Source: an uncultured Clostridium sp.
GTDB lineage: Bacteria; Bacillota; Clostridia; TANB77; CAG-508
Length of the DNA: 64,000 bases
Direction: 5' to 3'
NCBI GenBank assembly: GCA_905213875.1
Contig: CAJMJN010000004.1
Coordinates: forward strand, 2,370-66,369
In this document: piece after piece, positions 13,104-42,303 of the stretch
Layout of the letters: the number at the start of each line of letters is the position of its first letter
Position numbering within the stretch: position 1 is the first letter of the stretch
Translations under genes and position numbers: made by a program
The notes under the pieces: generated by a model
What the model was told of the DNA's origin: nothing
Databases searched by the model: none
Seen by the model: only the letters and a program-made list of their open reading frames with translations

Positions 13104-14477
13104 TTAGCCATTTTTAGCCATTTTGCAAATGAAAAATCCATCTGTTTTTTCATTCTGATATACTTGTAAGTACTTACAGTTTTTTATATATTTTTGAAAG
13201 AATTCATTTGCATTTTTTTCATCTTTTAATTGTTCATTTTTTTCAAAATCAAATTTTTCCACATTAAAATTCGAATTGTTTTTCATAAATTCTTCTATTA
13301 CATCTTCGTTTTCTTCTTTAAATATACTACAAGTCGAATACACAATTTTTCCATTTTTCTTTAAATATTTTGAACAATTTTCTAAAATTTTATATTGTAT
13401 TTTTGAAATTTCTTTTATATTTTTTTCATTTTTTTGCCATTTTATGTCTGGTTTTCTTTTTAAAACACCTATTCCCAAACATGGTACATCTAATAAAATT
13501 TTATCAAATTTTTCTTTATATTCATCTTTATATATTGTTGCATCTTGTACATTTGTTTCTATGATTTTTAGTTCTAATCTTTTGGCTGCATTTTCCACTA
13601 ATTTCGTTCTGTGTTCATGTATATCCCATGCTTCAATTTTTCCTTTGTCTTCCATTATCTCTGCTAAATATGTAGTTTTCCCTCCAGGACTACTACAAGC
13701 ATCTAAAATATTTTCTCCTGAGTCTGGATTTAAAACTAAAGCTGTTAATCCTGCTACCTCATCTTGTATCGTAAAATATCCTTTTTTAAATTCTTCTATA
13801 TTTTCTATTTTTTTAGCTTTTTTTATTATAAGGAAATCATTTAATATTCCGTCTTCTACTTCTATTCCTTTATTTTGCAATTTTTCTTTTAATTCTTGTT
13901 TGCTTATTTTTAAATTGTTAACACGAATAGAAATATTAGGTCTAATATTTGAACATTTACATATTTTTTCTATTTGTTCTAATGATAATCCTTCTTTTTT
14001 TAATTCCAAAATTATCCATTCTGGCATTGACGTAATTTTTGATATTCTTTTTATATTGTCTTTTTCTTCAAATAATTCAGTGTAATCTTTTTTATCCACT
14101 TTTCTTAATACTGCATTTACAAAACCTACGCTACCTTTATTTCCATATCTTTTAGCTAATTTTACTCCTTCATTAACTGCTGCTGATTTTGGTATTTTGT
14201 CTAAAAATATTATTTGATATATTGACATTCTTAAAATATTTAAAATCCATTTTGATATCTTTTTTAATTTTATTTTTGAATATTTTTTTATTATTTCATC
14301 TAATGTAAGTTTCCATGTTGTTACACCATATATAATTTCAGATATTAAACTAATGTCTTTAATATTTAAATTTTCTTTCTGTTTTTTTATTTCATTATTT
14401 AACACAATATTTGAATAAGCATTTTCTTCATCTATTTTATATAGAATTTTTAATGCTGTTTCTCTTGCTTTATCCAT
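13104..14477 (-). CDS. rsmB: 16S rRNA (cytosine967-C5)-methyltransferase RsmB/Sun
   Basis: NusB-like N-terminal domain (ARETALKILYKIDEENAYSNIVL), SAM-binding motif (LDACSSPGGKTT) and catalytic motifs DVPCLGIG and YSTCSI. Confidence 0.85.
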   Translation of the reverse strand: MDKARETALKILYKIDEENAYSNIVLNNEIKKQKENLNIKDISLISEIIYGVTTWKLTLDEIIKKYSKIKLKKISKWILNILRMSIYQIIFLDKIPKSAAVNEGVKLAKRYGNKGSVGFVNAVLRKVDKKDYTELFEEKDNIKRISKITSMPEWIILELKKEGLSLEQIEKICKCSNIRPNISIRVNNLKISKQELKEKLQNKGIEVEDGILNDFLIIKKAKKIENIEEFKKGYFTIQDEVAGLTALVLNPDSGENILDACSSPGGKTTYLAEIMEDKGKIEAWDIHEHRTKLVENAAKRLELKIIETNVQDATIYKDEYKEKFDKILLDVPCLGIGVLKRKPDIKWQKNEKNIKEISKIQYKILENCSKYLKKNGKIVYSTCSIFKEENEDVIEEFMKNNSNFNVEKFDFEKNEQLKDEKNANEFFQKYIKNCKYLQVYQNEKTDGFFICKMAKNG

Positions 14478-14582: not shown

Positions 14583-14801
14583 ATGGAAGTTAAAAAACAT
14601 TTATTTATTACTGGAACTTCAACAGTTTCATGGAAAGATGCTATTGTAAAAACAATTGCAGAAGCATCTAAAAGTATTGATTATTTATCAAATGTAAAAA
14701 TAATTGAGCAAAGAGCAAATATTGATGGTGATAAAATTTCTGAGTATTTTGTCGATTTAGATTTAACTTTTACTATTGATGAAAACAGAAAAAATAGTTA
14801 G
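14583..14801 (+). CDS. Dodecin-like small protein
   Basis: 72 aa. ITGTSTVSWKDAIVKTIAEASKSI...YFVDLDLTF resembles the dodecin (flavin-binding) fold pattern. It has a GGAGG RBS and directly precedes spoVAC. Confidence 0.5.
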   Translation: MEVKKHLFITGTSTVSWKDAIVKTIAEASKSIDYLSNVKIIEQRANIDGDKISEYFVDLDLTFTIDENRKNS

Positions 14802-14818
14802 GAGGTTTATTTATTATT

Positions 14819-15283
14819 ATGGATCCTTTAGAAAGTAAACAAACTTATCAAAAATATGTTGATAAGAAATCACCAAATTCACCTATATTAAAAAATTGCT
14901 TTAATGCTTTTTGGGTTGGTGGATTAATTTGTACAATTGGTCAAGTCATTTTTAATATTTGCAAAGAACGTGGTTTTGATACATCAACTTCAAGTACAAT
15001 TGTTTCCATCTTGCTTATTGGAATTTCTGCATTTTTGACTGGTCTTAATTTATTTAATAAAATAGGAAAATTTGCAGGCGCAGGTTCTTTAGTTCCTATA
15101 ACTGGTTTTGCTAATTCTATCGTTTCCCCTGCTATGGAATATAAATCTGAAGGATATGTTATGGGAGTTGGTGGAAAAATGTTCACAGTTGCTGGTCCTG
15201 TTTTAGTTTTTGGTATTTCTGCATCTATTTTAGTTGGAATTGTTTATTTAATTTTTAATACACAAGCTATTACTTTAGTATAA
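14819..15283 (+). CDS. spoVAC: Stage V sporulation protein AC
   Basis: 154 aa, four TM segments, conserved NAFWVGGLICTIGQ and ITGFANS motifs of SpoVAC. It is followed by spoVAD and spoVAE. Confidence 0.9.
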   Translation: MDPLESKQTYQKYVDKKSPNSPILKNCFNAFWVGGLICTIGQVIFNICKERGFDTSTSSTIVSILLIGISAFLTGLNLFNKIGKFAGAGSLVPITGFANSIVSPAMEYKSEGYVMGVGGKMFTVAGPVLVFGISASILVGIVYLIFNTQAITLV

Positions 15284-15308
15284 ATTATTTATAGCTTTAC
15301 TTAATTTT

Positions 15309-15410
15309 ATATATTTTTTTCTTGCAACTCCCAACTGCATAACAATCTGTAACTTCGTAACAGCTTGTAATTTGTCTGTCCCCCCGAATTGTTGCCACAA
15401 AAAAATATAT
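15309..15410 (+). repeat. Copy 1 of a ~102-nt structured inverted-repeat element (candidate cis-RNA or MITE-like insertion)
   Basis: Sequence ATATATTTTTTTCTTGCAAC-TCCCAACT-...hairpin...-GTCCCCCCGAATT-GTTGCCACAAAAAAATATAT. It occupies an atypical 178-bp gap between spoVAC and spoVAD. An inverted homologous copy lies at 19382..19483. Confidence 0.7.
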
Positions 15411-15461
15411 AAAATTATTCAAATGTGTATTAATGGATTTTAAAAGAAAGAGGTTGATTTT

Positions 15462-16463
15462 TTGAAAAAAGTAGGTAAACAAACTATTAGTTTTGATTCT
15501 CCACCAACCATTACAGAGTGTAATAGTATAGTTGGTCCTAAAGAGGCTCAAGGACCACTTGCTAAGTATTTTGATTTAACTTTAGATGATGAGTTTTGGG
15601 GCGAAAAAACTTGGGAAAAAGCTGAAAGTAAAATTATAAAAGAAAATGTAAGTGCATTAGTCACAAAGTCTGGTATATCTACAAATGATATTGATTGTAT
15701 TTTTGCAGGTGATTTATTAAATCAATGTATTTCATCTAGCTTTGGATTACGTGACAGTAATATTCCTTTTATCGGAATGTTTGGAGCTTGTTCAACTTTT
15801 GTTGAAAGTATGTGTATGGGTGCAATCGCAGTTGAAAGTTTTGCCAAAAATGTTATTTGTGCTACTTCTAGTCATTTTTGTAGTGCAGAAAAACAATTTA
15901 GGTTTCCATTAGAATTAGGAAATCAACGTCCACCAACAAGTCAATGGACTGTAACAGGTTCAGGAGCTACTATTTTATCAAAAGATGGTACAGGTCCTTT
16001 TATTACAAATATAACTTTAGGGAAAATTGTGGATATGGGTATAAAAGATGCAAATAATATGGGTGCAGCTATGGTCCCTGCTTTTGCAGATACTTTATTA
16101 ACACATTTTGCAGACACAGGCAGAAATCCTAGTTATTATGATGCTATTATTAGCGGAGATCTTGGTAAAATTGGAAAAGAAATAGCTATTGATATTGCCA
16201 TGTCTAAAGGTTATAACATAAAAAGTAATTATAATGATTGTGGACTTATGATTTTTGATACTAAAGCTCAAGATACTCATGCGGGTGGAAGTGGATGTGC
16301 TTGTTGTGGTTCTGTTTTTTCAGGATTTTTATTCAAACAATTAAAAGAGAAAAAAATTAAAAAATTGTTATTAATTGCAACAGGTGCTTTAATGAATTCT
16401 ACAAGTTCTCAACAAGGAGAAAGCATCCCTGGAATTGCACATGCTGTTAGCATTGAACTATAA
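15462..16463 (+). CDS. spoVAD: Stage V sporulation protein AD
   Basis: 333 aa with a thiolase/KAS-III-like fold and the SpoVAD signature (IVGPKEAQGPL, FAGDLLNQ, MFGACST). TTG start with an AGAGG RBS. Confidence 0.9.
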   Translation: MKKVGKQTISFDSPPTITECNSIVGPKEAQGPLAKYFDLTLDDEFWGEKTWEKAESKIIKENVSALVTKSGISTNDIDCIFAGDLLNQCISSSFGLRDSNIPFIGMFGACSTFVESMCMGAIAVESFAKNVICATSSHFCSAEKQFRFPLELGNQRPPTSQWTVTGSGATILSKDGTGPFITNITLGKIVDMGIKDANNMGAAMVPAFADTLLTHFADTGRNPSYYDAIISGDLGKIGKEIAIDIAMSKGYNIKSNYNDCGLMIFDTKAQDTHAGGSGCACCGSVFSGFLFKQLKEKKIKKLLLIATGALMNSTSSQQGESIPGIAHAVSIEL

Positions 16464-16571
16464 ATTTCTGTGCTTTATATGCTGATTTTACTTTTTTATT
16501 ATTTGTAAATTATATATTTATTTTTATAGATTTTTGTTTAAAATCTAAATTTGTTAATAAGGATTTTAATT

Positions 16572-16964
16572 ATGGATATAAATTGGACAAATATTTTTGA
16601 TGTTTATTCGCTATTAAAATGTTTTATAGTAGCTGGAATTATATGTGTCATTGGTCAAATTTTAATTGATAAAACCAAACTTACACCCGCCAAAATATTA
16701 GTAATTTTTGTTACAACTGGTGCTATTTTGGGAGGTTTAGGTATTTATAAATATTTAGTTGAATTTGCTGGTTGTGGTGCTACTGTTCCACTTACAGGTT
16801 TTGGTTATAATTTATCTAAAGGAGCAATTGAAGCAGTAAAAGAATCTGGTTTGCTTGGTGCATTTACTGGTGGTGTAAAAGCTGCTGCTGGCGGTATTGC
16901 TGCTGCTGTGTTTTTCGGTTATCTTGCTTCTTTAATTTCTAAGCCTAAAATGAAAAAACAATAA
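16572..16964 (+). CDS. spoVAE: Stage V sporulation protein AE (AEB-type)
   Basis: The start was chosen at MDINWTNIF. Membrane protein with the VPLTGFG motif paralogous to SpoVAC. It is the last gene of the spoVA operon. Confidence 0.85.
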   Translation: MDINWTNIFDVYSLLKCFIVAGIICVIGQILIDKTKLTPAKILVIFVTTGAILGGLGIYKYLVEFAGCGATVPLTGFGYNLSKGAIEAVKESGLLGAFTGGVKAAAGGIAAAVFFGYLASLISKPKMKKQ

Positions 16965-17012
16965 AAAAAGTCCTTATTACTTTCTATATTGAAAATAATA
17001 AGGATTTTTATT
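16965..17012. terminator. Bidirectional rho-independent terminator between spoVAE and rplT
   Basis: TCCTTATTA...TAATAAGGA stem flanked by an A-run and a T-run, between convergent genes. Confidence 0.6.
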
Positions 17013-17026
17013 TATAATTATAATAA

Positions 17027-17377
17027 TTATGCTTTTTTTGCTATTTCAGCAATTTCTGCAAATGCTTTTTCATCATTTACAGCTAAGTCAGCTAACATTT
17101 TTCTGTTAATTTCTACATTAGCTTTTTTAAGTCCTGCTATTAATTTGCTGTATGTAGTACCATTAATTCTTGCTGCTGCATTAATTCTTGTAATCCATAA
17201 TTTTCTGAAATTACTTTTTTTGTCTTTTCTTCCTACATATGCATATGTTAATGATTTTAAAACTGCTTGGTTTGCGTTTCTAAATCTATAACTTTTTGCT
17301 CCATAATATCCTTTTGCTTGTTTTAATACTTTTTTATGTCTTGCTCTTGTTGTTCTAGCTGTTTTTACTCTTGCCAT
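17027..17377 (-). CDS. rplT: 50S ribosomal protein L20
   Basis: [29 protein letters not shown] is the canonical L20 N-terminus. Confidence 0.97.
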
Positions 17378-17411
17378 TTATAATTCACCTTCCTTTGATT
17401 TCTACTTTATT

Positions 17412-17615
17412 TTAGTTTCCATATGGTAATAATTTTTTAATTGTATTTACACATGTTTTATCTGCATAAGCATCTTGTACTTTTCCAGATTTTCTTTGTC
17501 TAGCTGTTTTATTAGCTAGTAAATGTCTTCTGTTTGATTTTGTTCTTTTTACTTTTCCTGTAGCTGTTATTGAATATCTTTTTTTAGCAGCTTTATTTGT
17601 TTTTAATTTTGGCAT
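17412..17615 (-). CDS. rpmI: 50S ribosomal protein L35
   Basis: MPKLKTNKAAKKRYSITATGKVKR is the canonical L35 N-terminus. Confidence 0.95.
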   Translation of the reverse strand: MPKLKTNKAAKKRYSITATGKVKRTKSNRRHLLANKTARQRKSGKVQDAYADKTCVNTIKKLLPYGN

Positions 17616-17645
17616 AATGATATACTCCTTTCGATTTTTGTTATA

Positions 17646-18173
17646 TTATTTAGCAGAATTTTTTTCTGCTTTTTTAGCTAATATTGTAAACATATTTCTA
17701 CCTTCTAATTTAGGTTTCTTTTCCACTGTAGCAACATCTTCTAGGCTTTCAATAAACTTATTTAAAACAGTTTCTCCTGCTTTAGCATTATTTATTTCCC
17801 TTCCTCTAAATCTTACTGTTACTTTTACTTTGTTGCCATCATCTAGAAATTTTTTTGTGTTTTTTAATTTAAAACTAAAGTCATGTTCTTCAATATTCGG
17901 AGTTACTCTTATTTCTTTTACTTCAAGAGTTTTTTGCTTTTTCTTAGCTTCTTTTTCCTTTTTTGCTTGTTCAAATTTATATTTTCCATAGTTCATTATT
18001 TTGCAAACAACTGGATTTGCATTTGGTGCTACTAATACTAAATCTAAATCATTATCTTCTGCTTTTTTTAAAGCTTCTTCAAAAGAAACTAATCCTATTT
18101 TTTCTCCATCTGCTCCTATTAATTGAACTTCTTTAGCTCTAATTTGTCTATTGATTGGTAATTCTTGTTTTAT
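17646..18173 (-). CDS. infC: Translation initiation factor IF-3 (non-AUG start)
   Basis: The listed ORF starts at an internal Met. The frame stays open upstream as (M)KQELPINRQIRAKEVQLIGADGEKIGLVSFEEALKKAEDNDLDLVLVAPNANPVVCKIMNYGKYKF, matching the IF-3 N-domain. An ATA codon at 18173-18171 lies 7 nt after GGAGGTG. Atypical AUU/AUA starts are the established autoregulatory feature of infC. Confidence 0.9.
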   Translation of the reverse strand: MKQELPINRQIRAKEVQLIGADGEKIGLVSFEEALKKAEDNDLDLVLVAPNANPVVCKIMNYGKYKFEQAKKEKEAKKKQKTLEVKEIRVTPNIEEHDFSFKLKNTKKFLDDGNKVKVTVRFRGREINNAKAGETVLNKFIESLEDVATVEKKPKLEGRNMFTILAKKAEKNSAK

Positions 18174-18189
18174 GTTAAAACACCTCCAT

Positions 18190-18350
18190 AAATAAAAAAA
18201 TTTGACTTTTGTTACAAGTCAAATTAAAAAATACTTTAATACTTACATATTAAAATTATTTAATTCTAACCTTTTTCCCTCTTTGGATTAGGTGAGAAGT
18301 TTATTACTTCTTCTTGTAACGCTTATTATTATACACTGCCTTTTGTCCTT
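18190..18350 (-). promoter_or_regulatory. L20-leader-like attenuator upstream of infC-rpmI-rplT
   Basis: On the minus strand a terminator hairpin AATTTGACTTGTAACAAAAGTCAAATTTTTTT (about 18194-18224) lies just 5' of the infC RBS. It is preceded by GC-richer, stem-forming sequence (GAAGAAGT..ACTTCTC). Firmicute infC operons are known to be controlled by an L20-binding leader. The assignment is by position and architecture only. Confidence 0.45.
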
Positions 18351-18486
18351 TTGTCAAGGATTTTTCATGATTTTTTTATTTTTATATACATAAATTGGTC
18401 ACAAATTTTCATTTAGTTCCCAGCTAATTGTTTGGCTTTTTATGTGACAGACTTGAATATAAGCTTTTCTATAAATAAAATATTAA

Positions 18487-19317
18487 CTAATAACTTATCA
18501 GATATATTAATATACCAATTGATTGTATTACAAATAAATTCAACATATTTGAACTTATTAAATTATTTGTAGCCTCTATCACACCTTTTAACTGTTCTTT
18601 GCTTTCTTTTTTGTGATATTTTTGCGCCTCATTAAATGTTATAAATTCAGGTGCACTTGTAATTACTCCAAGTAATATTCCTATTATTATTTGTGATACT
18701 CCAAAGTTGTTGCACAATATTTCTAGTGAATCTGATAAAATATTACCTATTATAAATATTAAAATTGTTGCTCCAATTAATATAATTATATATTTTAATA
18801 TTTGCTTTTTATTTTTTTCCTCTGCTCCTTGCTTTTTTTCTATTTCATTTTCTTTTCCTAAATATTTCTTATGAATTTTGCTATCTGTTATAGAAAATAT
18901 ACAAAATAGCAATAAAAATATGATTATTATCATAAAATTTAGTTCTATATCTTTTACATATATTATAACTGGAATTATTATTGTAATTAGTACAATTATT
19001 AATTCTATTATAATTACTTTGTTTTTCATTTTTTTAATATTTCCATTTATTTTTACTGTTAAAAAATATTCTAATACATTAATTACATTTGAACTAAGTA
19101 TATTAAATATTCCGGTATCTATTAGTCCTGTGAAACCAGCTATACCAAGTGATAGTAGTTCTGGCACTGATGTTGCAATTCCTGCTATATTTCCAACTGT
19201 TTTTGACTTTAAATTCATACTTTGTGCTAATTTTCGAAGTGTGGTTGCTAATATATTTTTAGATATTATAACTATTAAGATTGAACAAATTATAAATTTT
19301 AAAAATGTTATTATCAT
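18487..19317 (-). CDS. CaCA-family cation/Ca2+ exchanger membrane protein
   Basis: 276 aa polytopic protein with two alpha-repeat motifs (GIATSVPELLSLG and GVITSAPEFITF) typical of Na+/Ca2+ or H+/Ca2+ exchanger (PF01699-type) halves. Confidence 0.8.
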   Translation of the reverse strand: MIITFLKFIICSILIVIISKNILATTLRKLAQSMNLKSKTVGNIAGIATSVPELLSLGIAGFTGLIDTGIFNILSSNVINVLEYFLTVKINGNIKKMKNKVIIIELIIVLITIIIPVIIYVKDIELNFMIIIIFLLLFCIFSITDSKIHKKYLGKENEIEKKQGAEEKNKKQILKYIIILIGATILIFIIGNILSDSLEILCNNFGVSQIIIGILLGVITSAPEFITFNEAQKYHKKESKEQLKGVIEATNNLISSNMLNLFVIQSIGILIYLISY

Positions 19318-19381
19318 AAAATCACCTATTATTATTTTGACATTTCTTTACCTTTTTATTCTAAATTTTATATATAGTTTA

Positions 19382-19483
19382 ATATATTTTTTATGCAGTA
19401 ACAATTCGGGGGGACCGACAAGTTACAGACTGTTATATAATTACAGTCTGTACGTAGTTGGGAGTTACAAAGAAAAAATATAT
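19382..19483 (-). repeat. Copy 2 (inverted) of the ~102-nt structured element
   Basis: The reverse complement aligns with 15309..15410 over its whole length, with conserved CTCCCAACT and GTCCCCCCGAATTGTT blocks and compensatory stem changes. It lies about 65 nt 5' of the exchanger start on the minus strand and upstream of the serS promoter on the plus strand. Confidence 0.7.
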
Positions 19484-19511
19484 TAAACTTGGAATATCTT
19501 TAGATAAATTA

Positions 19512-19540
19512 TTGATATTTGTCACAAAATACGATATAAT
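19512..19540 (+). promoter_or_regulatory. SigA-type promoter for serS
   Basis: TTGATA (19512-19517), a 17-nt spacer, then TATAAT (19535-19540). It lies about 30 nt upstream of the serS RBS AGAGGAG. Confidence 0.5.
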
Positions 19541-19571
19541 ACCTTAGAATTAAAGAAAAGAGGAGATTTTT

Positions 19572-20861
19572 ATGATAGACATTAAATTTTTAAGAGAAAA
19601 TCCAGATGTTGTAAAAGAAAACATCAAAAACAAATTTCAAGATGCGAAACTTCCTCTAGTAGATGAAGTTATTGAACTTGATAAAAAAAGTAGAGAAGCA
19701 AAATTAAATGGAGATAATTTACGTTCTCAAAGAAAAAATTTGAGTAATCAAATTGGAAGTTTAATGAGATCTGGTAATAAAGATGAAGCTGAAAAAGTAA
19801 AAGCTGAAGTTACTGAAATAAATGCTAAATTAGAAGAAAATGAAAAATTAGAAAATGAATATTCTGAAGAAATAAAATCTAGAATGATGAAAATTCCTAA
19901 TATTATGCATCCATCAGTTCCAATCGGTAAAGATGATAATGAAAATGTTGAAATTCAAAGATTTGGTGAACCTGTCGTTCCAGATTATGAAATTCCATTT
20001 CATGGTGAAATATTAGAAGCTCTTGGTGGTTTAGATTTAGATAGTGCTAGACGTGTTGCAGGTCAAGGTTTTTATTATTTAATGGGTGATGTTGCAAGAC
20101 TTCATTCTGCTGTTTTAACTTATGCAAGAGATTTTATGATAAATAAAGGGTTTACTTATTGCATACCACCTTTTATGATTCGTTCAGATGTTGTAACAGG
20201 TGTTATGAGTTTTGAAGAAATGGATGCAATGATGTACAAAATTGAAGGAGAAGATTTATATTTAATTGGTACTTCTGAACATTCTATGATTGGTAAATTT
20301 AAAGATCAAATTTTAAATAAAGAAGACATGCCATATACTATGACATCATATTCTCCTTGTTTTAGAAAAGAAAAAGGTGCTCATGGTATTGAAGAACGTG
20401 GCGTTTACCGCATACATCAATTTGAAAAACAAGAAATGATAGTTGTTTGCGAACCAGAAGATAGCTGGGAATGGTATGATAAAATGTGGTCATATACAGT
20501 TGAATTCTTTAGAAGTATGGGAATTCCTGTTAGAACATTAGAATGTTGTTCAGGTGACCTAGCTGACTTAAAAGCAAAATCTTGTGATGTTGAAGCTTGG
20601 AGCCCTCGTCAAAAGAAATATTTTGAAGTTGGTAGTTGTTCTAACTTAACTGATGCACAAGCTCGTAGACTTGGTATTAGAATAAAAGGTGAAAATGGAA
20701 CATATTTTGCACATACTTTAAACAATACCGTTGTTGCCCCACCTAGAATGCTTATTTCTATCATGGAAAATAATTATCAACCTGATGGTTCTGTAATTAT
20801 TCCAGAAGTTTTAAGACCATATATGGGCGGATTAGAAAAAATTCAAGTTAAAAAAAAGTAA
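19572..20861 (+). CDS. serS: Serine--tRNA ligase
   Basis: MIDIKFLRENPDVVKENIKNKF with an N-terminal coiled-coil arm, and class II motifs (YRIHQFEKQEM, FAHTLNNT). Confidence 0.95.
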   Translation: MIDIKFLRENPDVVKENIKNKFQDAKLPLVDEVIELDKKSREAKLNGDNLRSQRKNLSNQIGSLMRSGNKDEAEKVKAEVTEINAKLEENEKLENEYSEEIKSRMMKIPNIMHPSVPIGKDDNENVEIQRFGEPVVPDYEIPFHGEILEALGGLDLDSARRVAGQGFYYLMGDVARLHSAVLTYARDFMINKGFTYCIPPFMIRSDVVTGVMSFEEMDAMMYKIEGEDLYLIGTSEHSMIGKFKDQILNKEDMPYTMTSYSPCFRKEKGAHGIEERGVYRIHQFEKQEMIVVCEPEDSWEWYDKMWSYTVEFFRSMGIPVRTLECCSGDLADLKAKSCDVEAWSPRQKKYFEVGSCSNLTDAQARRLGIRIKGENGTYFAHTLNNTVVAPPRMLISIMENNYQPDGSVIIPEVLRPYMGGLEKIQVKKK

Positions 20862-30113: not shown

Positions 30114-30701
30114 TTATTTTACTATATGTAATTTGTTTTCTACTTTATTATTGGGATTTACAAGTTGTTTTATATATTCTAAAGTTTCATTTTGTACTTC
30201 TAAGATTTTTCCAATATTTAATCTATTTATTCTAATGTCATCTTTCATGACTAATTGTTCATTTCTAATTTCTATTTGTCCTTCTTTTAGAATTTTAATA
30301 TCACTTTTCATTTGTTTCATATCTTTTTTCATTGTCTGTTGTTCTCTTTTTATATTCTTTATGTCTTTTTTCATTACTTGTTGTTCTTCTTTGATGTTCT
30401 TGATATCTTCTTTCATTACTTGTTGTTCTTCTTTTATGTTTTTGATATCTTCTTTCATTACTTGTTGTTCTTCTTTTATGTTTTTGATATCTTCTTTCAT
30501 TACTTGTTGTTCTTCCTTTATGACTTTGATATCTTTTTCCATTACATCTTGTCTTTCTTTTATGTTCTTGATGTCTTTTTTTATTACATGTTGCTCTTCT
30601 TTTATATTCTTGATATCATCTTTCATCTCGTATTGAGCAGATTTAACATCTTTAACTTCGGAACTTATTGTTTTAAGAATATTTATAATTTTTTCTTCCA
30701 A
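30114..30701 (-). CDS. Coiled-coil protein built of 14-aa tandem repeats
   Basis: KEDIKNIKEEQQVM is repeated about 8 times, with the central copies identical. No TM segment or signal peptide is evident. Confidence 0.6.
   Translation of the reverse strand: MEEKIINILKTISSEVKDVKSAQYEMKDDIKNIKEEQHVIKKDIKNIKERQDVMEKDIKVIKEEQQVMKEDIKNIKEEQQVMKEDIKNIKEEQQVMKEDIKNIKEEQQVMKKDIKNIKREQQTMKKDMKQMKSDIKILKEGQIEIRNEQLVMKDDIRINRLNIGKILEVQNETLEYIKQLVNPNNKVENKLHIVK
30318..30630. repeat. 42-bp tandem repeat array (coding)
   Basis: The unit TTCATTACTTGTTGTTCTTCTTTTATGTTTTTGATATCTTCT recurs head-to-tail. Copies near 30412-30495 are identical and the flanking copies are degenerate. The array is in frame with CDS 30114..30701. 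Confidence 0.85.
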
Positions 30702-39037: not shown

Positions 39038-40563
39038 TTTTTTTCAATTCCTTGTACATATATCCTATCGATTTTTTCATGTATAAATTCTTTTGTTAAT
39101 TCAAATGTATCAAAATCAAAAAACTTCTTTATTTTTTGTTGATTTTTTCCAGTTTCATTTGCATCTCTATTTACTTTTAATTGTATTAATTGACTTTTAT
39201 AATCCATAATTTCGTCTTGATATTCATTCTTGATTTTTTCAAACTCATCATCAGTAATTTTATTCATAGTATATAATTTTATTAAATTAGCTTTATTCTT
39301 TTCCTTTTCATTTATTGCATTTTCTAAAATTTTTATATTTTTTTCTAATTTAAAATCCTTTTTGTCTAACCTAGAATTTGCTTTCAACATTTCTTTAAGT
39401 ATCATTGATTTCTTTTCTAATAATTCAGAAAAAACCTCACTTAATATACTATTTAATTCCTCAGTTCCAATATATGTATGATTATTACAATTTTTTAAGC
39501 CATTCTTAGCATATTCAGAACATATCCAAAATTCTTCTTTTGCTGTTGGTCTATGCTTTCTTCTCCAAAATTTTTTTCCATCATTAGTACATATCAATAA
39601 ATTAGAATATTGGTATTGATTATTCCAACGATCTCCAGTTCCAGTATACTTATTACTTCTCTTTTCCATTATTTCATTGCATTTTTGCCATATATCGTCA
39701 TTTACAATTTGTGGTACAATATTCTCTTCAGCTTTATAGGTAATCCATTCCTCTTTTGGAATTTCTATTCTTTCCTTACTCATAAAATCTATCACCTCTG
39801 TTTTTTTACCACAATAACATCCTTTATATTTTGGATTTGTAAGTATATTTTTTATTGTAGAATAAGCAAAAACATCTCCTTTTCTCGTTAATTTTCCCTC
39901 TTCTGCTAGTTTCTTTCCAATTCTCCTTATTCCAATATTTCCTGTGGAATATAATTCAAAAATTCTCGAAACAATTTCTGCTTCTTCATCGATTTTTTTC
40001 AATTTACAATTGTCTTTTTCATATCCCCATATAACATTACTGCCAAGCACTCTTCCTTTTTCTATTGCTCTATTAAATCCAAATTTTACCCTTTCTGAAA
40101 TTCTTCTACTTTCATCCTGTGCAAGTGATGCCATAAGTGTTAATCTCAATTCTCCTTCTTGTTCAAGAGTATTAATATTATCTAATTCAAAATATATACC
40201 TTTTCCTCTTGCTAATAAGTTTCTAGTAAACTGTAGTGTGTCTAATGTATTTCTTGCAAATCTACATACTTCTTTTGTTAAAATCAGATCATATTTATCA
40301 TCCATACCATCCTGTATCATATTATTAAAGTCCTCTCTTTTCTTTATTGATGTTCCTGTTATTCCACTGTCACTATAGCCTTGAACTAATGTCCATTTAG
40401 GTATAGATAAAATTTTGTTTTTGTAATAATCATCCTGATTTATTAGTGAATTTTTTTGTTCATTCTTTCCTGTAGAAACTCTTGCATAATATGTCACCCT
40501 TAAAGGTAAATCATATATTGTTTTTCCTGACATTAATGCTTTTCTAATTTCATATAATTCCAT
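38842..40563 (-). CDS. Large serine recombinase (element-proximal)
   Basis: N-terminal resolvase catalytic domain (YARVSTGKNEQKNSLINQ with catalytic Ser, LTKEVCRFARN), a recombinase domain, a Cys-containing zinc-ribbon region and a long coiled coil. The ORF reads through the junction, so its last ~40 codons are antisense spoIVA. Confidence 0.9.
   Translation of the reverse strand: MELYEIRKALMSGKTIYDLPLRVTYYARVSTGKNEQKNSLINQDDYYKNKILSIPKWTLVQGYSDSGITGTSIKKREDFNNMIQDGMDDKYDLILTKEVCRFARNTLDTLQFTRNLLARGKGIYFELDNINTLEQEGELRLTLMASLAQDESRRISERVKFGFNRAIEKGRVLGSNVIWGYEKDNCKLKKIDEEAEIVSRIFELYSTGNIGIRRIGKKLAEEGKLTRKGDVFAYSTIKNILTNPKYKGCYCGKKTEVIDFMSKERIEIPKEEWITYKAEENIVPQIVNDDIWQKCNEIMEKRSNKYTGTGDRWNNQYQYSNLLICTNDGKKFWRRKHRPTAKEEFWICSEYAKNGLKNCNNHTYIGTEELNSILSEVFSELLEKKSMILKEMLKANSRLDKKDFKLEKNIKILENAINEKEKNKANLIKLYTMNKITDDEFEKIKNEYQDEIMDYKSQLIQLKVNRDANETGKNQQKIKKFFDFDTFELTKEFIHEKIDRIYVQGIEKNHVKLKINFHLGLEMSEVDKKSICLGLIICIEGAVAFNLTPKREPCFTISGSSKTSSSIEGVTIP
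38984..39014 (+). terminator. GC-rich hairpin about 20 nt inside the element's left end
   Basis: TCCACCTCG-(13 nt)-CGAGGTGGA followed by AATTTATTTTT on the plus strand. It would stop spoIVA-derived transcription from entering the element antisense to the recombinase. Confidence 0.4.
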
Positions 40564-40671: not shown

Positions 40672-42303
40672 TTAACTAGCAATCTTTTGCTTATCTATGT
40701 ACTTAATTATTTTTTTCTTTTTATATAATAATTCTATTGTAATTCCAACTTTTAAAACTATTTCTAAATTTGCTAATCCTGTATCATCCAGTCTCTCTAC
40801 TTTTATTTTATCTAAAATTACATCTACTAATTGTGCTGGTATTCCTTGAAAAAATTCAAAATCCTTTTCAAAACTTTTCTTTATTATTTGCATCTTATCA
40901 TCTATTTCATCCTTATTTCTTGACATTATAAGTTTATTTTTTTCTTCTTCATAGGCTGATATTTTTTCGTTATATATATTGTTTTCTTCCTCAAATTCTT
41001 TTTCATCAATAAGTTCTGTAGTATATAATTTTATCAATTTTTTCTTTTCTTTCTTCAAGCTTTCAATTTTATTTTGTAGTGAAGTTATATCTATTTCAGT
41101 AGAACAGTCTTCAAAGCACTCTTTACATTTATTTAATAAATTCTCTATAAATTTTTCTTTATTTATAAACATTTCATTAAATATTCGTTTTAATACTTCA
41201 TCTAATGTTTCTGTATATATATTAACATTGTTTGCACATCCACTTATACCTTTTTTCTTATATAATGCACATTGCCAAAATTCTCTTCCTCTACTAATTG
41301 TTCTCCAATAACATTGTCCATCTTTTTTGCAATAAATTTTTCCAGAATATTTATATTTTGTATTATAACCAGTTGTTTCGCTTTTAGCTCTTTCACTTCT
41401 TTCTTTAAAGATTTCATTACATTTTTCCCAAATTTTTTCATCAACAATTTGTGGTACAACGTCATCTGTCGCTTTATATTCTACAATTTCATCTTCTCCA
41501 AGATTTACTCTTTGTTTAGTCATGAAATCTATAACTCTTGTCTTATTCCCAGAATAAAAGCCTTTATATTTCGGATTTGTAAGTATATTTTTTATTGTAG
41601 AATAAGCAAATGTTTCTCCTTTTTTTGTTAATATTCCTTCTTCTTCAAGTTTTTTTCCAACTTTTCGTATTCCAATATCACCTGATGCATATATTTCATA
41701 AATTCTTTTTACAATTTTTGCCTCATCTTCGTTCATTTTTAATTTACAATTATCTTTTTCATAACCCCATATAGCATTATTTCCCAATACTCGTCCTTTT
41801 TCTATTGATCTTTTAAAACCAAACTTTACTCTTTCTGAGATTCGTCTGCTTTCGTCTTGTGCTAATGATGCCATTATTGTTAATCTTAATTCTCCCTCTT
41901 GTTCTAATGTATTTATATTGTCCAGTTCAAAATAAACTCCCTTTCCCTTTGCCAATAAACTTCTAGTTAATTGTAATGTATCTAATGTATTTCTTGCAAA
42001 TCTACACACTTCTTTTGTCAATATTAAATCATACATATCATTAAGTCCATCAGAAATCATTTCATTAAAATCTTTTCTTTTTTTTGTAGAAGTACCTGTT
42101 ATACCTCTATCACTATATCCATCAACTAATGTCCACATTGGTGTATCTAAGATTTTATTTTTGTAATATATCTCTTGGTTATCTAACGAGTTTTTTTGCT
42201 CGTCCTTTTCTGTTGATACTCTTGAATAATATGTAACTCTTAGTGGTAAATCATATATCGTTTTTCCTGACATCAATTCTCTTCTTATTGTATATAAATC
42301 CAT
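40672..42303 (-). CDS. Large serine recombinase (second, paralogous)
   Basis: MDLYTIRRELMSGKTIYDLPLRVTYYSRVSTEKDEQKNSLDNQ... is closely similar to the first recombinase over the N-terminal ~300 aa and divergent in the C-terminal coiled coil. It has its own terminator hairpin (AAGCCC-TTAT-GGGCTT, about 40655-40670). Confidence 0.9.
   Translation of the reverse strand: MDLYTIRRELMSGKTIYDLPLRVTYYSRVSTEKDEQKNSLDNQEIYYKNKILDTPMWTLVDGYSDRGITGTSTKKRKDFNEMISDGLNDMYDLILTKEVCRFARNTLDTLQLTRSLLAKGKGVYFELDNINTLEQEGELRLTIMASLAQDESRRISERVKFGFKRSIEKGRVLGNNAIWGYEKDNCKLKMNEDEAKIVKRIYEIYASGDIGIRKVGKKLEEEGILTKKGETFAYSTIKNILTNPKYKGFYSGNKTRVIDFMTKQRVNLGEDEIVEYKATDDVVPQIVDEKIWEKCNEIFKERSERAKSETTGYNTKYKYSGKIYCKKDGQCYWRTISRGREFWQCALYKKKGISGCANNVNIYTETLDEVLKRIFNEMFINKEKFIENLLNKCKECFEDCSTEIDITSLQNKIESLKKEKKKLIKLYTTELIDEKEFEEENNIYNEKISAYEEEKNKLIMSRNKDEIDDKMQIIKKSFEKDFEFFQGIPAQLVDVILDKIKVERLDDTGLANLEIVLKVGITIELLYKKKKIIKYIDKQKIAS

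Follow-up and report, generated by a model that had tools for sequence, protein, structure and literature searches.

A fold-back intergenic repeat, probably MITE-like, in the spoVAC–spoVAD and CaCA–serS spacers of an uncultured gut Clostridium

The 64,000-nt stretch of an uncultured Clostridium sp. analyzed here (the window; positions 2370–66369 of contig C4 in the genome designated G000, which has a size of 1.48 Mb, 26% G+C, and 99.98% completeness) contains two inverted copies of a structured element. Copy 1 is located in the 178-nt spacer between the spoVAC and spoVAD genes, in sense orientation 51–52 nt upstream of the spoVAD start. Copy 2 is located in the intergenic region common to the divergent genes of a CaCA-type Na+/Ca2+ exchanger and seryl-tRNA synthetase (serS), in sense orientation ~65 nt upstream of the exchanger start. 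What is this element, and is its position next to two genes related to Ca2+ and dipicolinic acid (DPA) meaningful? [quoted passage not shown] The evidence presented below favors the repeat and speaks against a Ca2+/DPA-responsive RNA. In all likelihood, the element is a non-coding fold-back (palindromic) intergenic MITE-like repeat that is specific to one family of uncultured gut Clostridia with small AT-rich genomes, and its copies are gained and lost at unrelated intergenic sites. It represents a new, previously undescribed repeat family; a literature search revealed no described equivalent of this fold-back.

Structure of the element

The two window copies align end to end in inverted orientation with 80% identity over 110 nt (BLAST), which bears out the earlier by-eye estimate of about four-fifths, and they are the two longest inverted repeats (I1 and I2) found by the repeat search in the window. 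The CTCCCAACT and GTCCCCCCGAATTGTT blocks are unchanged between them, as had been claimed for the two C-rich blocks. The reported switch of the outer stem (GCAAC/GTTGC in copy 1 versus GTAAC/GTTAC in copy 2) was also found, and so was that of the inner hairpin, described as A-U/G-C, which is a compensated A-T/G-C difference. The inner hairpin of copy 1 additionally has one central T·C mismatch that was absent from the initial annotation. The flanking inverted repeat noted there is real, yet it is longer than stated: both copies are flanked by ...TATATTTTTT / AAAAAATATA... arms, which measure 18 nt (copy 1) and 17 nt (copy 2). Folding of both strands is much better than that of shuffled sequences (z = −4.3 to −7.0), and none of 200 shuffles was as good.

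The general plan of the element can be described as follows. Outermost are A/T-rich terminal inverted arms of 17–20 bp (...AAGTTTAWNTATTTTTT / AAAAAATANWTAAACTT...), which are present in every copy, with 98.8% of arm cells paired in an alignment of 59 copies. They enclose an inner 5-bp stem (GTAAC/GTTAC or GCAAC/GTTGC), a further short stem CCARC/GYTGG, a conserved asymmetric C-rich bulge of 12 nt (TCCCCNCGAAWT), and a central hairpin of a length that varies among copies. The element is 105–155 nt in size and contains no open reading frame (ORF), and every examined copy is intergenic. Subfamilies differ by the length of the central hairpin (~125 versus ~150 nt) and by the stem sequence; TCCCA(A/G)C and GGTCCCCNCGAA are kept in all of them. 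The stem difference between the window copies appears to be a subfamily difference, since GCAAC/GTTGC copies also occur four times in another genome, G234, and judging by their stems, copies 1 and 2 are members of two different subfamilies. Like MITEs, the element is small and non-coding, has terminal inverted repeats (TIRs), and occurs in dispersed polymorphic copies.

No Rfam 15 family matches the element at E ≤ 10 in the window or at E ≤ 5 in six divergent copies, so that even permissive thresholds agree with the failure of the initial annotation to match a riboswitch class. A promoter and terminator scan around both window copies showed no enrichment and no site within the elements.

Copies, sites, and carriers

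Seven full copies were found in the G000 genome by BLAST, and an eighth, internally deleted copy (C1:84015–84080) was detected by the motif scan and the covariance model. The five full copies outside the window adjoin unrelated genes. One lies by the genes for an M23 peptidase and an XRE regulator, another by those for a response regulator and IspG, and a third by a glutamate-synthase-like oxidoreductase gene that is convergent with an unknown gene. The genes for PgsA and an unknown membrane protein, also convergent, adjoin the fourth copy, and those for an MMPL transporter and a large surface protein the fifth. No calcium, dipicolinate, or sporulation link was found among these neighbors. At eight copies per 1.48 Mb, ~0.16 pairs are expected by chance within 4.2 kb, and two copies in one window are therefore unremarkable. 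We infer that the nearness of the window copies to Ca2+/DPA genes is a coincidence.

The closest relative among the genomes compared, G044, is collinear with positions 14600–20100 of the window (5.5 kb) at 92% nucleotide identity, and the alignment is interrupted exactly at both elements. At the site of copy 1, ~108 nt are absent (~15315–15422), and at the site of copy 2, ~111 nt (~19387–19497). The reverse case was observed as well, with two G044 copies missing from the syntenic G000 sites. As for other G000 copies, the one on contig C3 is also present in G044, the C11 site contains only a short palindrome there, and the flanks of the full C1 copy (66597–66710) have no match. The C19 site (14300–14416) is occupied in G044 (C4:~185900–186100) by a different fold-back family. 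Altogether, four sites are polymorphic between G000 and G044. A similar replacement can be noted when comparing G014 (contig C2) with its close relative G001 (contig C1), where one intergenic site holds unrelated fold-back elements. These sequences indicate what appears to be a fast turnover of palindromic repeats at preferred sites. Separately, the copy at C17:7783–7889 of G000 lies between convergent genes, and its flanks map to two different G044 contigs, C5 and C4; the repeat therefore coincides with a synteny breakpoint.

The spoVAC–spoVAD junction was compared at 80 relatives; the relatives of SpoVAD come from metagenome-assembled genomes (MAGs) of uncultured gut Clostridia, such as Clostridium sp. 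CAG:492. In many of them the spacer is just 10–30 nt long (for example, GGAGGTAATATT), which is about the length of the ancestral gap. The element was found in only one of the 80, L095, that is, at 2 of 81 junctions if G000 is counted. The L095 junction sequence is the G234 copy, and the element is nested there between two inverted REP-like units. Many other relatives have unrelated palindromic repeats in this spacer. Overall, its length spans 10 to >400 nt, and at least five unrelated palindromic families, some of them nested, were recognized among the 80 relatives. To judge from these sequences, the spoVAC–spoVAD spacer is a recurrent landing site for palindromic repeats.

The covariance model R1, built from the seven G000 copies, matches 8 of the 25 genomes of the genus and gave no match in 16 genomes representing other families of the order. 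In the wider set of 400 genomes of the order, 52 have matches, all of them in the family f1 (9 of 50 genera). The number of copies in element-positive genomes ranges from one to at least 29 (G234), and the genomes of the genus range from zero. Orientation was classified for 58 copies with usable flanks, all of them intergenic. Among copies with co-directional flanking ORFs, the C-rich strand has the gene sense in 20 cases and the opposite sense in 15; ten further copies lie between divergent ORFs, ten between convergent ORFs, and three have incomplete flanks. The orientation relative to co-directional flanking genes is thus random. Moreover, at an orthologous locus in G014 (C29) and G001 (C53), whose flanks are ~95% identical, the core is inverted and the arm segment next to it is replaced. 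Elsewhere, copies occupy the centers of inverted REP-like pairs or of other long palindromes.

About 20 of the G234 copies are located inside a 181-nt unit with the inverted repeats GTAACTATTCAGA(S)G. Perfect 8-bp direct duplications (for example, AAAACTTG, GAAAACAG, and CTACTATT) flank the composite in at least nine cases and belong to the TIRs of the carrier. The carrier TIR has 129 matches in G234 versus 7 for the reversed control pattern, and the core of the carrier-borne copies points one way in 9 of them and the other way in 7. Carrier versions of 70–82 nt without the fold-back have duplications of their own; they show at least three distinct internal junctions, and a deletion between direct repeats of 6 nt could explain each of them. 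The G071 genome includes a 1,672-nt contig that has a 503-aa (amino acid) open frame with an IS66 DDE domain (PF03050, 61.6 bits) and carries GTAACTATTCAGAC at both ends, and the carrier TIR is identical to these ends over 14 nt. IS66-family insertion sequences (ISs) have GTAA-initiated inverted repeats and 8-bp direct repeats (PMC11946415). Because the TIR, the 8-bp duplications, and the G071 ends all match IS66, the fold-back of G234 multiplies as the cargo of an IS66-derived MITE, of which the G071 element is the putative parent. A PF03050 search of G234 and 12 other genomes gave a match only in G071.

These hallmarks are limited to the G234 181-nt composite. Neither the carrier TIR nor the carrier flanks were found in G000, and the window copies have A/T arms without flanking 8-bp duplications. 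The cognate element with matching ends, the G071 contig, answers to the carrier; none was found for the arms of the fold-back, and a motif search of G000 for an autonomous version (unpaired 5′ and 3′ motifs) returned only the seven full copies and the deleted one. A further resemblance can be noted on the G-rich strand, where the bulge and the inner-stem strand read GTAACAATTC, resembling the start of an IS66-type end or TIR, GTAACTATTC. Read as GTAACAATTCGGGG, this strand agrees with the IS66-type end GTAACTATTCAGAG at 11 of 14 positions. This likeness may be a lead to an origin in transposase recognition, although it is not a demonstration of one.

Covariation and competing explanations

Pairing statistics were obtained for the 59 copies aligned to the model (1,825 pair cells). 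Standard pairs account for 94–99% of cells in the arms, the inner stem, and the central hairpin. In helices 1–3, the pairs are 97% Watson–Crick with 222 double-sided changes, a result that none of 500 shuffles reached, and control structures slid by 1–3 columns have only 37–49% of cells paired. The CCARC/GYTGG stem pairs and covaries too (AGC/GCT versus AAC/GTT, with A·C in the GTCGG variants). Helix 4 proposed by RNAalifold (GG..CC in the C-rich block) was dropped, being 77% paired without covariation. With this helix removed and CCARC/GYTGG paired, TCCCCNCGAAWT is left as the conserved bulge. The origin of the outermost stem from the target, by insertion into terminator hairpins, was also considered and partly rejected: the arms are homologous between copies. 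The longer palindromy of some copies stems from their nesting inside other palindromic repeats.

In total, 1,777 Watson–Crick, 9 G·T, 9 A·C, and 30 other pairs were counted. Selection acting on RNA from a single strand should be far more permissive of G·U than of A·C. Since G·T and A·C are equally rare, there is no wobble excess, and this fits a DNA palindrome on both strands better than an RNA under selection. The stem covariation is therefore better understood as the symmetry of a DNA palindrome than as an RNA signature. Double transversions are frequent (A-T to C-G to T-A at one column), with each copy still perfectly paired, which points to a copying or correction process and not to stepwise compensatory mutation. 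The initial annotation had expected a plain repeat to show scattered copies in random orientation and no covariation. The scatter and the random orientation are indeed observed, whereas covariation is strong and almost exclusively of the Watson–Crick type.

A riboswitch or leader responding to Ca2+, DPA, or some related signal, with spoVAD and the exchanger gene under its control, would account for the sense orientation of both window copies 52–65 nt upstream of a Ca2+/DPA-related gene, for the strong fold and conserved loops, and for the same-orientation copy in the spoVAC–spoVAD gap of G234. However, the distribution of the element largely refutes it, and we consider it extremely improbable. 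Five of the seven full copies lie beside unrelated genes, and two lie between convergent genes, with no downstream gene to regulate. Both window copies are missing at the same sites of the 92%-identical G044, the element occupies only 2 of 81 spoVAC–spoVAD junctions, and it is randomly oriented (20 versus 15) and flips at an orthologous locus; with these observations, the Ca2+/DPA link drawn in the initial annotation loses its support. The lack of an Rfam match, the equal G·T and A·C counts, and the chance expectation of ~0.16 close pairs point in the same direction. The conserved core could instead be a functional RNA module (a C-rich anti-Shine–Dalgarno sRNA, a protein-sponge hairpin, or an RNase-processing site) that a mobile repeat disseminates and that is active wherever transcription includes it. 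Its bulge motifs TCCCAAC and GGTCCCCNCGAA are kept across nine genera while the stems covary, and other REP-like hairpins of these genomes show CGTCCCC in their loops. All 58 copies are intergenic, usually 10–250 nt from gene ends, and for this reason are probably co-transcribed. Yet the copies favor neither strand relative to transcription (20 versus 15), the flipping of the core means that half of the transcripts would have the G-rich complement, wobble pairs are not enriched (9 G·T versus 9 A·C), and neither a promoter nor a terminator signal accompanies the element. Such a module is very unlikely.

The element could alternatively be a functional site at the DNA level instead of a transposon relic. 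A hairpin or cruciform recombination site (an attC-like, inverton-like, or Xer-type target of a dedicated recombinase) would explain the flipping, the nesting in palindrome centers, and the strict Watson–Crick symmetry together. In favor of it, the core is inverted between orthologous loci and inside the carrier MITE, copies are repeatedly central in other palindromes, pure Watson–Crick pairing surrounds an asymmetric bulge as in folded attC sites, and there are short GTAAC...GTTAC inner stems. But ordinary recombination between the 17–25-bp inverted arms suffices for inversion, the R″/R′ consensus of attC (RYYYAAC/GTTRRRY) is not fitted, the copies are single and scattered and not arranged in cassette arrays, a recombinase is not a constant neighbor among the flanking genes that were examined, and the Y1 transposase shows no clear association. 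We therefore hold a recombination site to be very unlikely. Also unlikely is the reading of the core (the inner stems with the invariant asymmetric C-rich bulge) not as inert transposon remains but as a self-contained hairpin module recognized by some protein. It might be a single-stranded DNA recombination or insertion site that targets palindrome centers, its arms being re-templated at each event, or a structured RNA or protein-binding hairpin that hitch-hikes on IS66-derived MITEs, REPIN-like pairs, and bare A/T palindromes.

Several observations weigh against the MITE-like fold-back repeat that we favor. No clean target-site duplication was found around naked copies, and no autonomous, protein-encoding element bounded by the fold-back's own arms was found either, which should be read with the fact that MAGs often lack IS copies. 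G000 and G234 have no PF03050 match, and G000 has no match to the Y1 transposase, a weak kind of evidence in MAGs; G000 copies may accordingly be immobile relics. Several core-less carriers have the look of deletions between direct repeats of 6 nt. The element-less allele retains one arm at three of the four sites polymorphic between G000 and G044, and at the fourth it keeps a short palindrome with a compensated G-to-C change. The derived state can therefore be an insertion or a deletion alike, and the absence of the elements from G044 could be a secondary loss. Both G000 and G234 have a GCAAC-subfamily copy in the same orientation at spoVAC–spoVAD, which is either common ancestry or a notable coincidence. 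Finally, the bulge motifs are kept across genera while the stems turn over, so selection acts on something, and a role at the RNA level is conceivable.

As for the mechanism of the MITE-like repeat, the arms and stems would be kept exactly complementary by a process at the DNA level, and selection on RNA is not a likely cause. Candidate processes are correction mediated by hairpins or template switching, and transposition in which a hairpin is the intermediate. The conserved bulge probably serves a putative mobilizing enzyme as its recognition site. The window copies would be independent residents of the spoVAC–spoVAD and CaCA/serS spacers. If they are co-transcribed with their neighbors, they would put a long interrupted hairpin into the mRNA, and any effect on the processing or stability of spoVAD or CaCA mRNA would be only a side effect.

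Related repeats, neighboring features, and implications

ERIC/IRU (enterobacterial repetitive intergenic consensus) and YPAL elements are ~125-nt imperfect palindromes that are strictly intergenic in either orientation and often co-transcribed with their neighbors; related species differ patchily in the number of copies, and there are length variants that contain internal insertions. The fold-back (105–155 nt) has the same layout and distribution. It shares no sequence similarity with them, is found in Clostridia and not in Enterobacteria, and differs in its A/T-only arms with T6/A6 runs and in its conserved C-rich asymmetric bulge. Correia/NEMIS elements of Neisseria and RUP/BOX elements of Streptococcus pneumoniae are small, non-coding, TIR-bounded, multi-copy, strain-polymorphic MITEs that can form long hairpins in mRNA. 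Correia and RUP have defined TA duplications and a proposed parent IS, whereas neither a duplication nor a parent element was found for the fold-back itself. By analogy, the fold-back is comparable in form and genomic behavior to ERIC, Correia, and RUP. The G234 carrier, with its GTAAC-initiated TIRs and 8-bp duplications, resembles the IS66 family, a link that belongs to the carrier and not to the fold-back proper.

REP/REPIN elements, which are associated with RAYTs (REP-associated tyrosine transposases), are likewise palindromic intergenic repeats, often in inverted pairs and nested arrangements, and the same genomes also have REP-like 29–35-nt hairpins with a CGTCCCC loop. However, a REP unit has about a quarter of the fold-back's length, and the 5′ GTAG is missing from the fold-back. 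A RAYT/Y1 transposase (PF01797, Y1_Tnp) was considered as the mobilizer and rejected: it is present in ~37 of the 52 element-positive genomes versus 245 of the 400 genomes overall, which is no clear association. No PF01797 match was found in the element-positive genomes G000, G176, G209, G238, and G348. Integron attC sites are 57–141-nt imperfect palindromes in which structure and not sequence is conserved, with extrahelical bases and short AAC/GTT core stems. The inner stems of the fold-back, TTGTAAC / GTTACTG, miss the RYYYAAC / GTTRRRY consensus, and its copies are solitary and scattered, not in cassette arrays. No integrase gene adjoins them, although no search aimed at intI was made.

A REP-like family of 29-nt hairpins (ATGATTTTTTGCTCCGTCCCCAAAATCAT) with CGTCCCC in the loop has at least seven copies in G000 (C1:~11990, C2:~57480, and contigs C5, C8, C13, C30, and C35). 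CGTCCCC also recurs in several further families of palindromic repeats in related genomes (TTGCCAAA..GGTCCGTCCCC..TTTGGCAA; TGAGACA..GGGACAG..TGTCTCA). This loop motif resembles the C-rich bulge of the fold-back, and one binding factor common to both is conceivable.

The coordinates of the window features are given in Table 1. The ORF coordinates agree with the distances given in the initial annotation (a spacer of 178 nt, 52 nt to spoVAD, and ~65 nt to the exchanger gene), and its gene names agree with Pfam (SpoVAC, SpoVAD, SpoVAEB, Na_Ca_ex, and seryl-tRNA synthetase).

Table 1. Two copies of the fold-back element and the adjoining genes, in window coordinates.
Feature	Position	Strand	Basis	Remarks
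spoVAC	14819–15283	+	Pfam PF03862 (SpoVAC); ORF list	
Copy 1, whole	15296–15420	+	Covariance model R1, 122.2 bits, E = 6e-22	C-rich sense; GCAAC/GTTGC subfamily
Copy 1, left arm AATTTTATATATTTTTTT	15303–15320	+	Sequence, fold	Pairs with 15399–15416; kept at the G044 site without the element
Copy 1, inner stem 5′ strand GCAAC, then CTCCCAACT block	15324–15336	+		Partner GTTGC at 15391–15395
Copy 1, central hairpin ACAATCTGT / ACAGCTTGT	15342–15368	+		One T·C mismatch
Copy 1, C-rich block GTCCCCCCGAATTGTT	15378–15395	+		Continues into inner stem 3′ strand GTTGC
Copy 1, right arm AAAAAAATATATAAAATT	15399–15416	+	Sequence, fold	
spoVAD	15462–16463	+	Pfam PF07451 (SpoVAD); ORF list	
CaCA-type Na+/Ca2+ exchanger gene	18487–19317	−	Pfam PF01699 (Na_Ca_ex)	Copy 2 upstream of start
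Copy 2, whole	19372–19496	−	Covariance model R1, 148.3 bits, E = 2.6e-27	C-rich sense on −; GTAAC/GTTAC subfamily
Copy 2, arm AAAAAATATATTAAACT	19376–19392	−	Sequence	3′ arm in C-rich sense; outer 11 nt found at the element-less G044 site
Copy 2, GTCCCCCCGAATTGTT block	19400–19415	−	Sequence	
Copy 2, central hairpin ACAGACTGT / ACAGTCTGT	19425–19451	−	Sequence, fold	Perfect
Copy 2, CTCCCAACT block	19456–19464	−	Sequence	
Copy 2, arm AGTTTAATATATTTTTT	19473–19489	−	Sequence, fold	5′ arm in C-rich sense
serS (seryl-tRNA synthetase)	19572–20861	+	Pfam PF00587, PF02403	Divergent from the CaCA gene

Three other features of the window can be mentioned. At 18219–18321 on the minus strand, upstream of the infC-rpmI-rplT operon (IF3_C at 17646–17996; L20 at 17027–17377), the leader of ribosomal protein L20 (RF00558) is matched weakly, with 36.4 bits (E = 3e-4) where the gathering score is 58.7. 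This stretch is probably a divergent AT-rich L20 leader. A tandem array (D1) with a 42-nt period at 30239–30616 has at least seven overlapping register copies with 62–76% identity; it is probably a 14-residue repeat within a coding region. Two stretches of ~390 nt at 39655–40047 and 41395–41787 (D2/D5), located 1,740 nt apart, are 75–79% identical, which suggests tandem paralogous genes.

The analysis removes a tempting false lead, that of a "Ca2+/DPA riboswitch" in a sporulation operon, and adds a hitherto undescribed repeat family from uncultured gut Clostridia with small genomes, a lineage that has received little study. Covariation by itself is no proof of RNA where DNA palindromes are concerned, and a missing wobble excess is a cheap discriminator. 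The residual interest lies in the conserved bulge with its asymmetry, in how strictly the arms evolve in concert, and in the placement in palindrome centers. If the core were indeed a hairpin module recognized by a protein, gut Clostridia would have either a new kind of mobility guided by hairpins or a mobile RNA module of a new kind. Intergenic spacers of these genomes, even those inside an operon such as spoVAC–spoVAD, are hotspots taken in turn by fold-back families, which complicates both the discovery of non-coding RNAs and the assembly of MAGs. The fold-back nested in an IS66-derived MITE, with its flipping and recurrent deletion, offers a compact system for studying how palindromes are maintained and turned over in these genomes.

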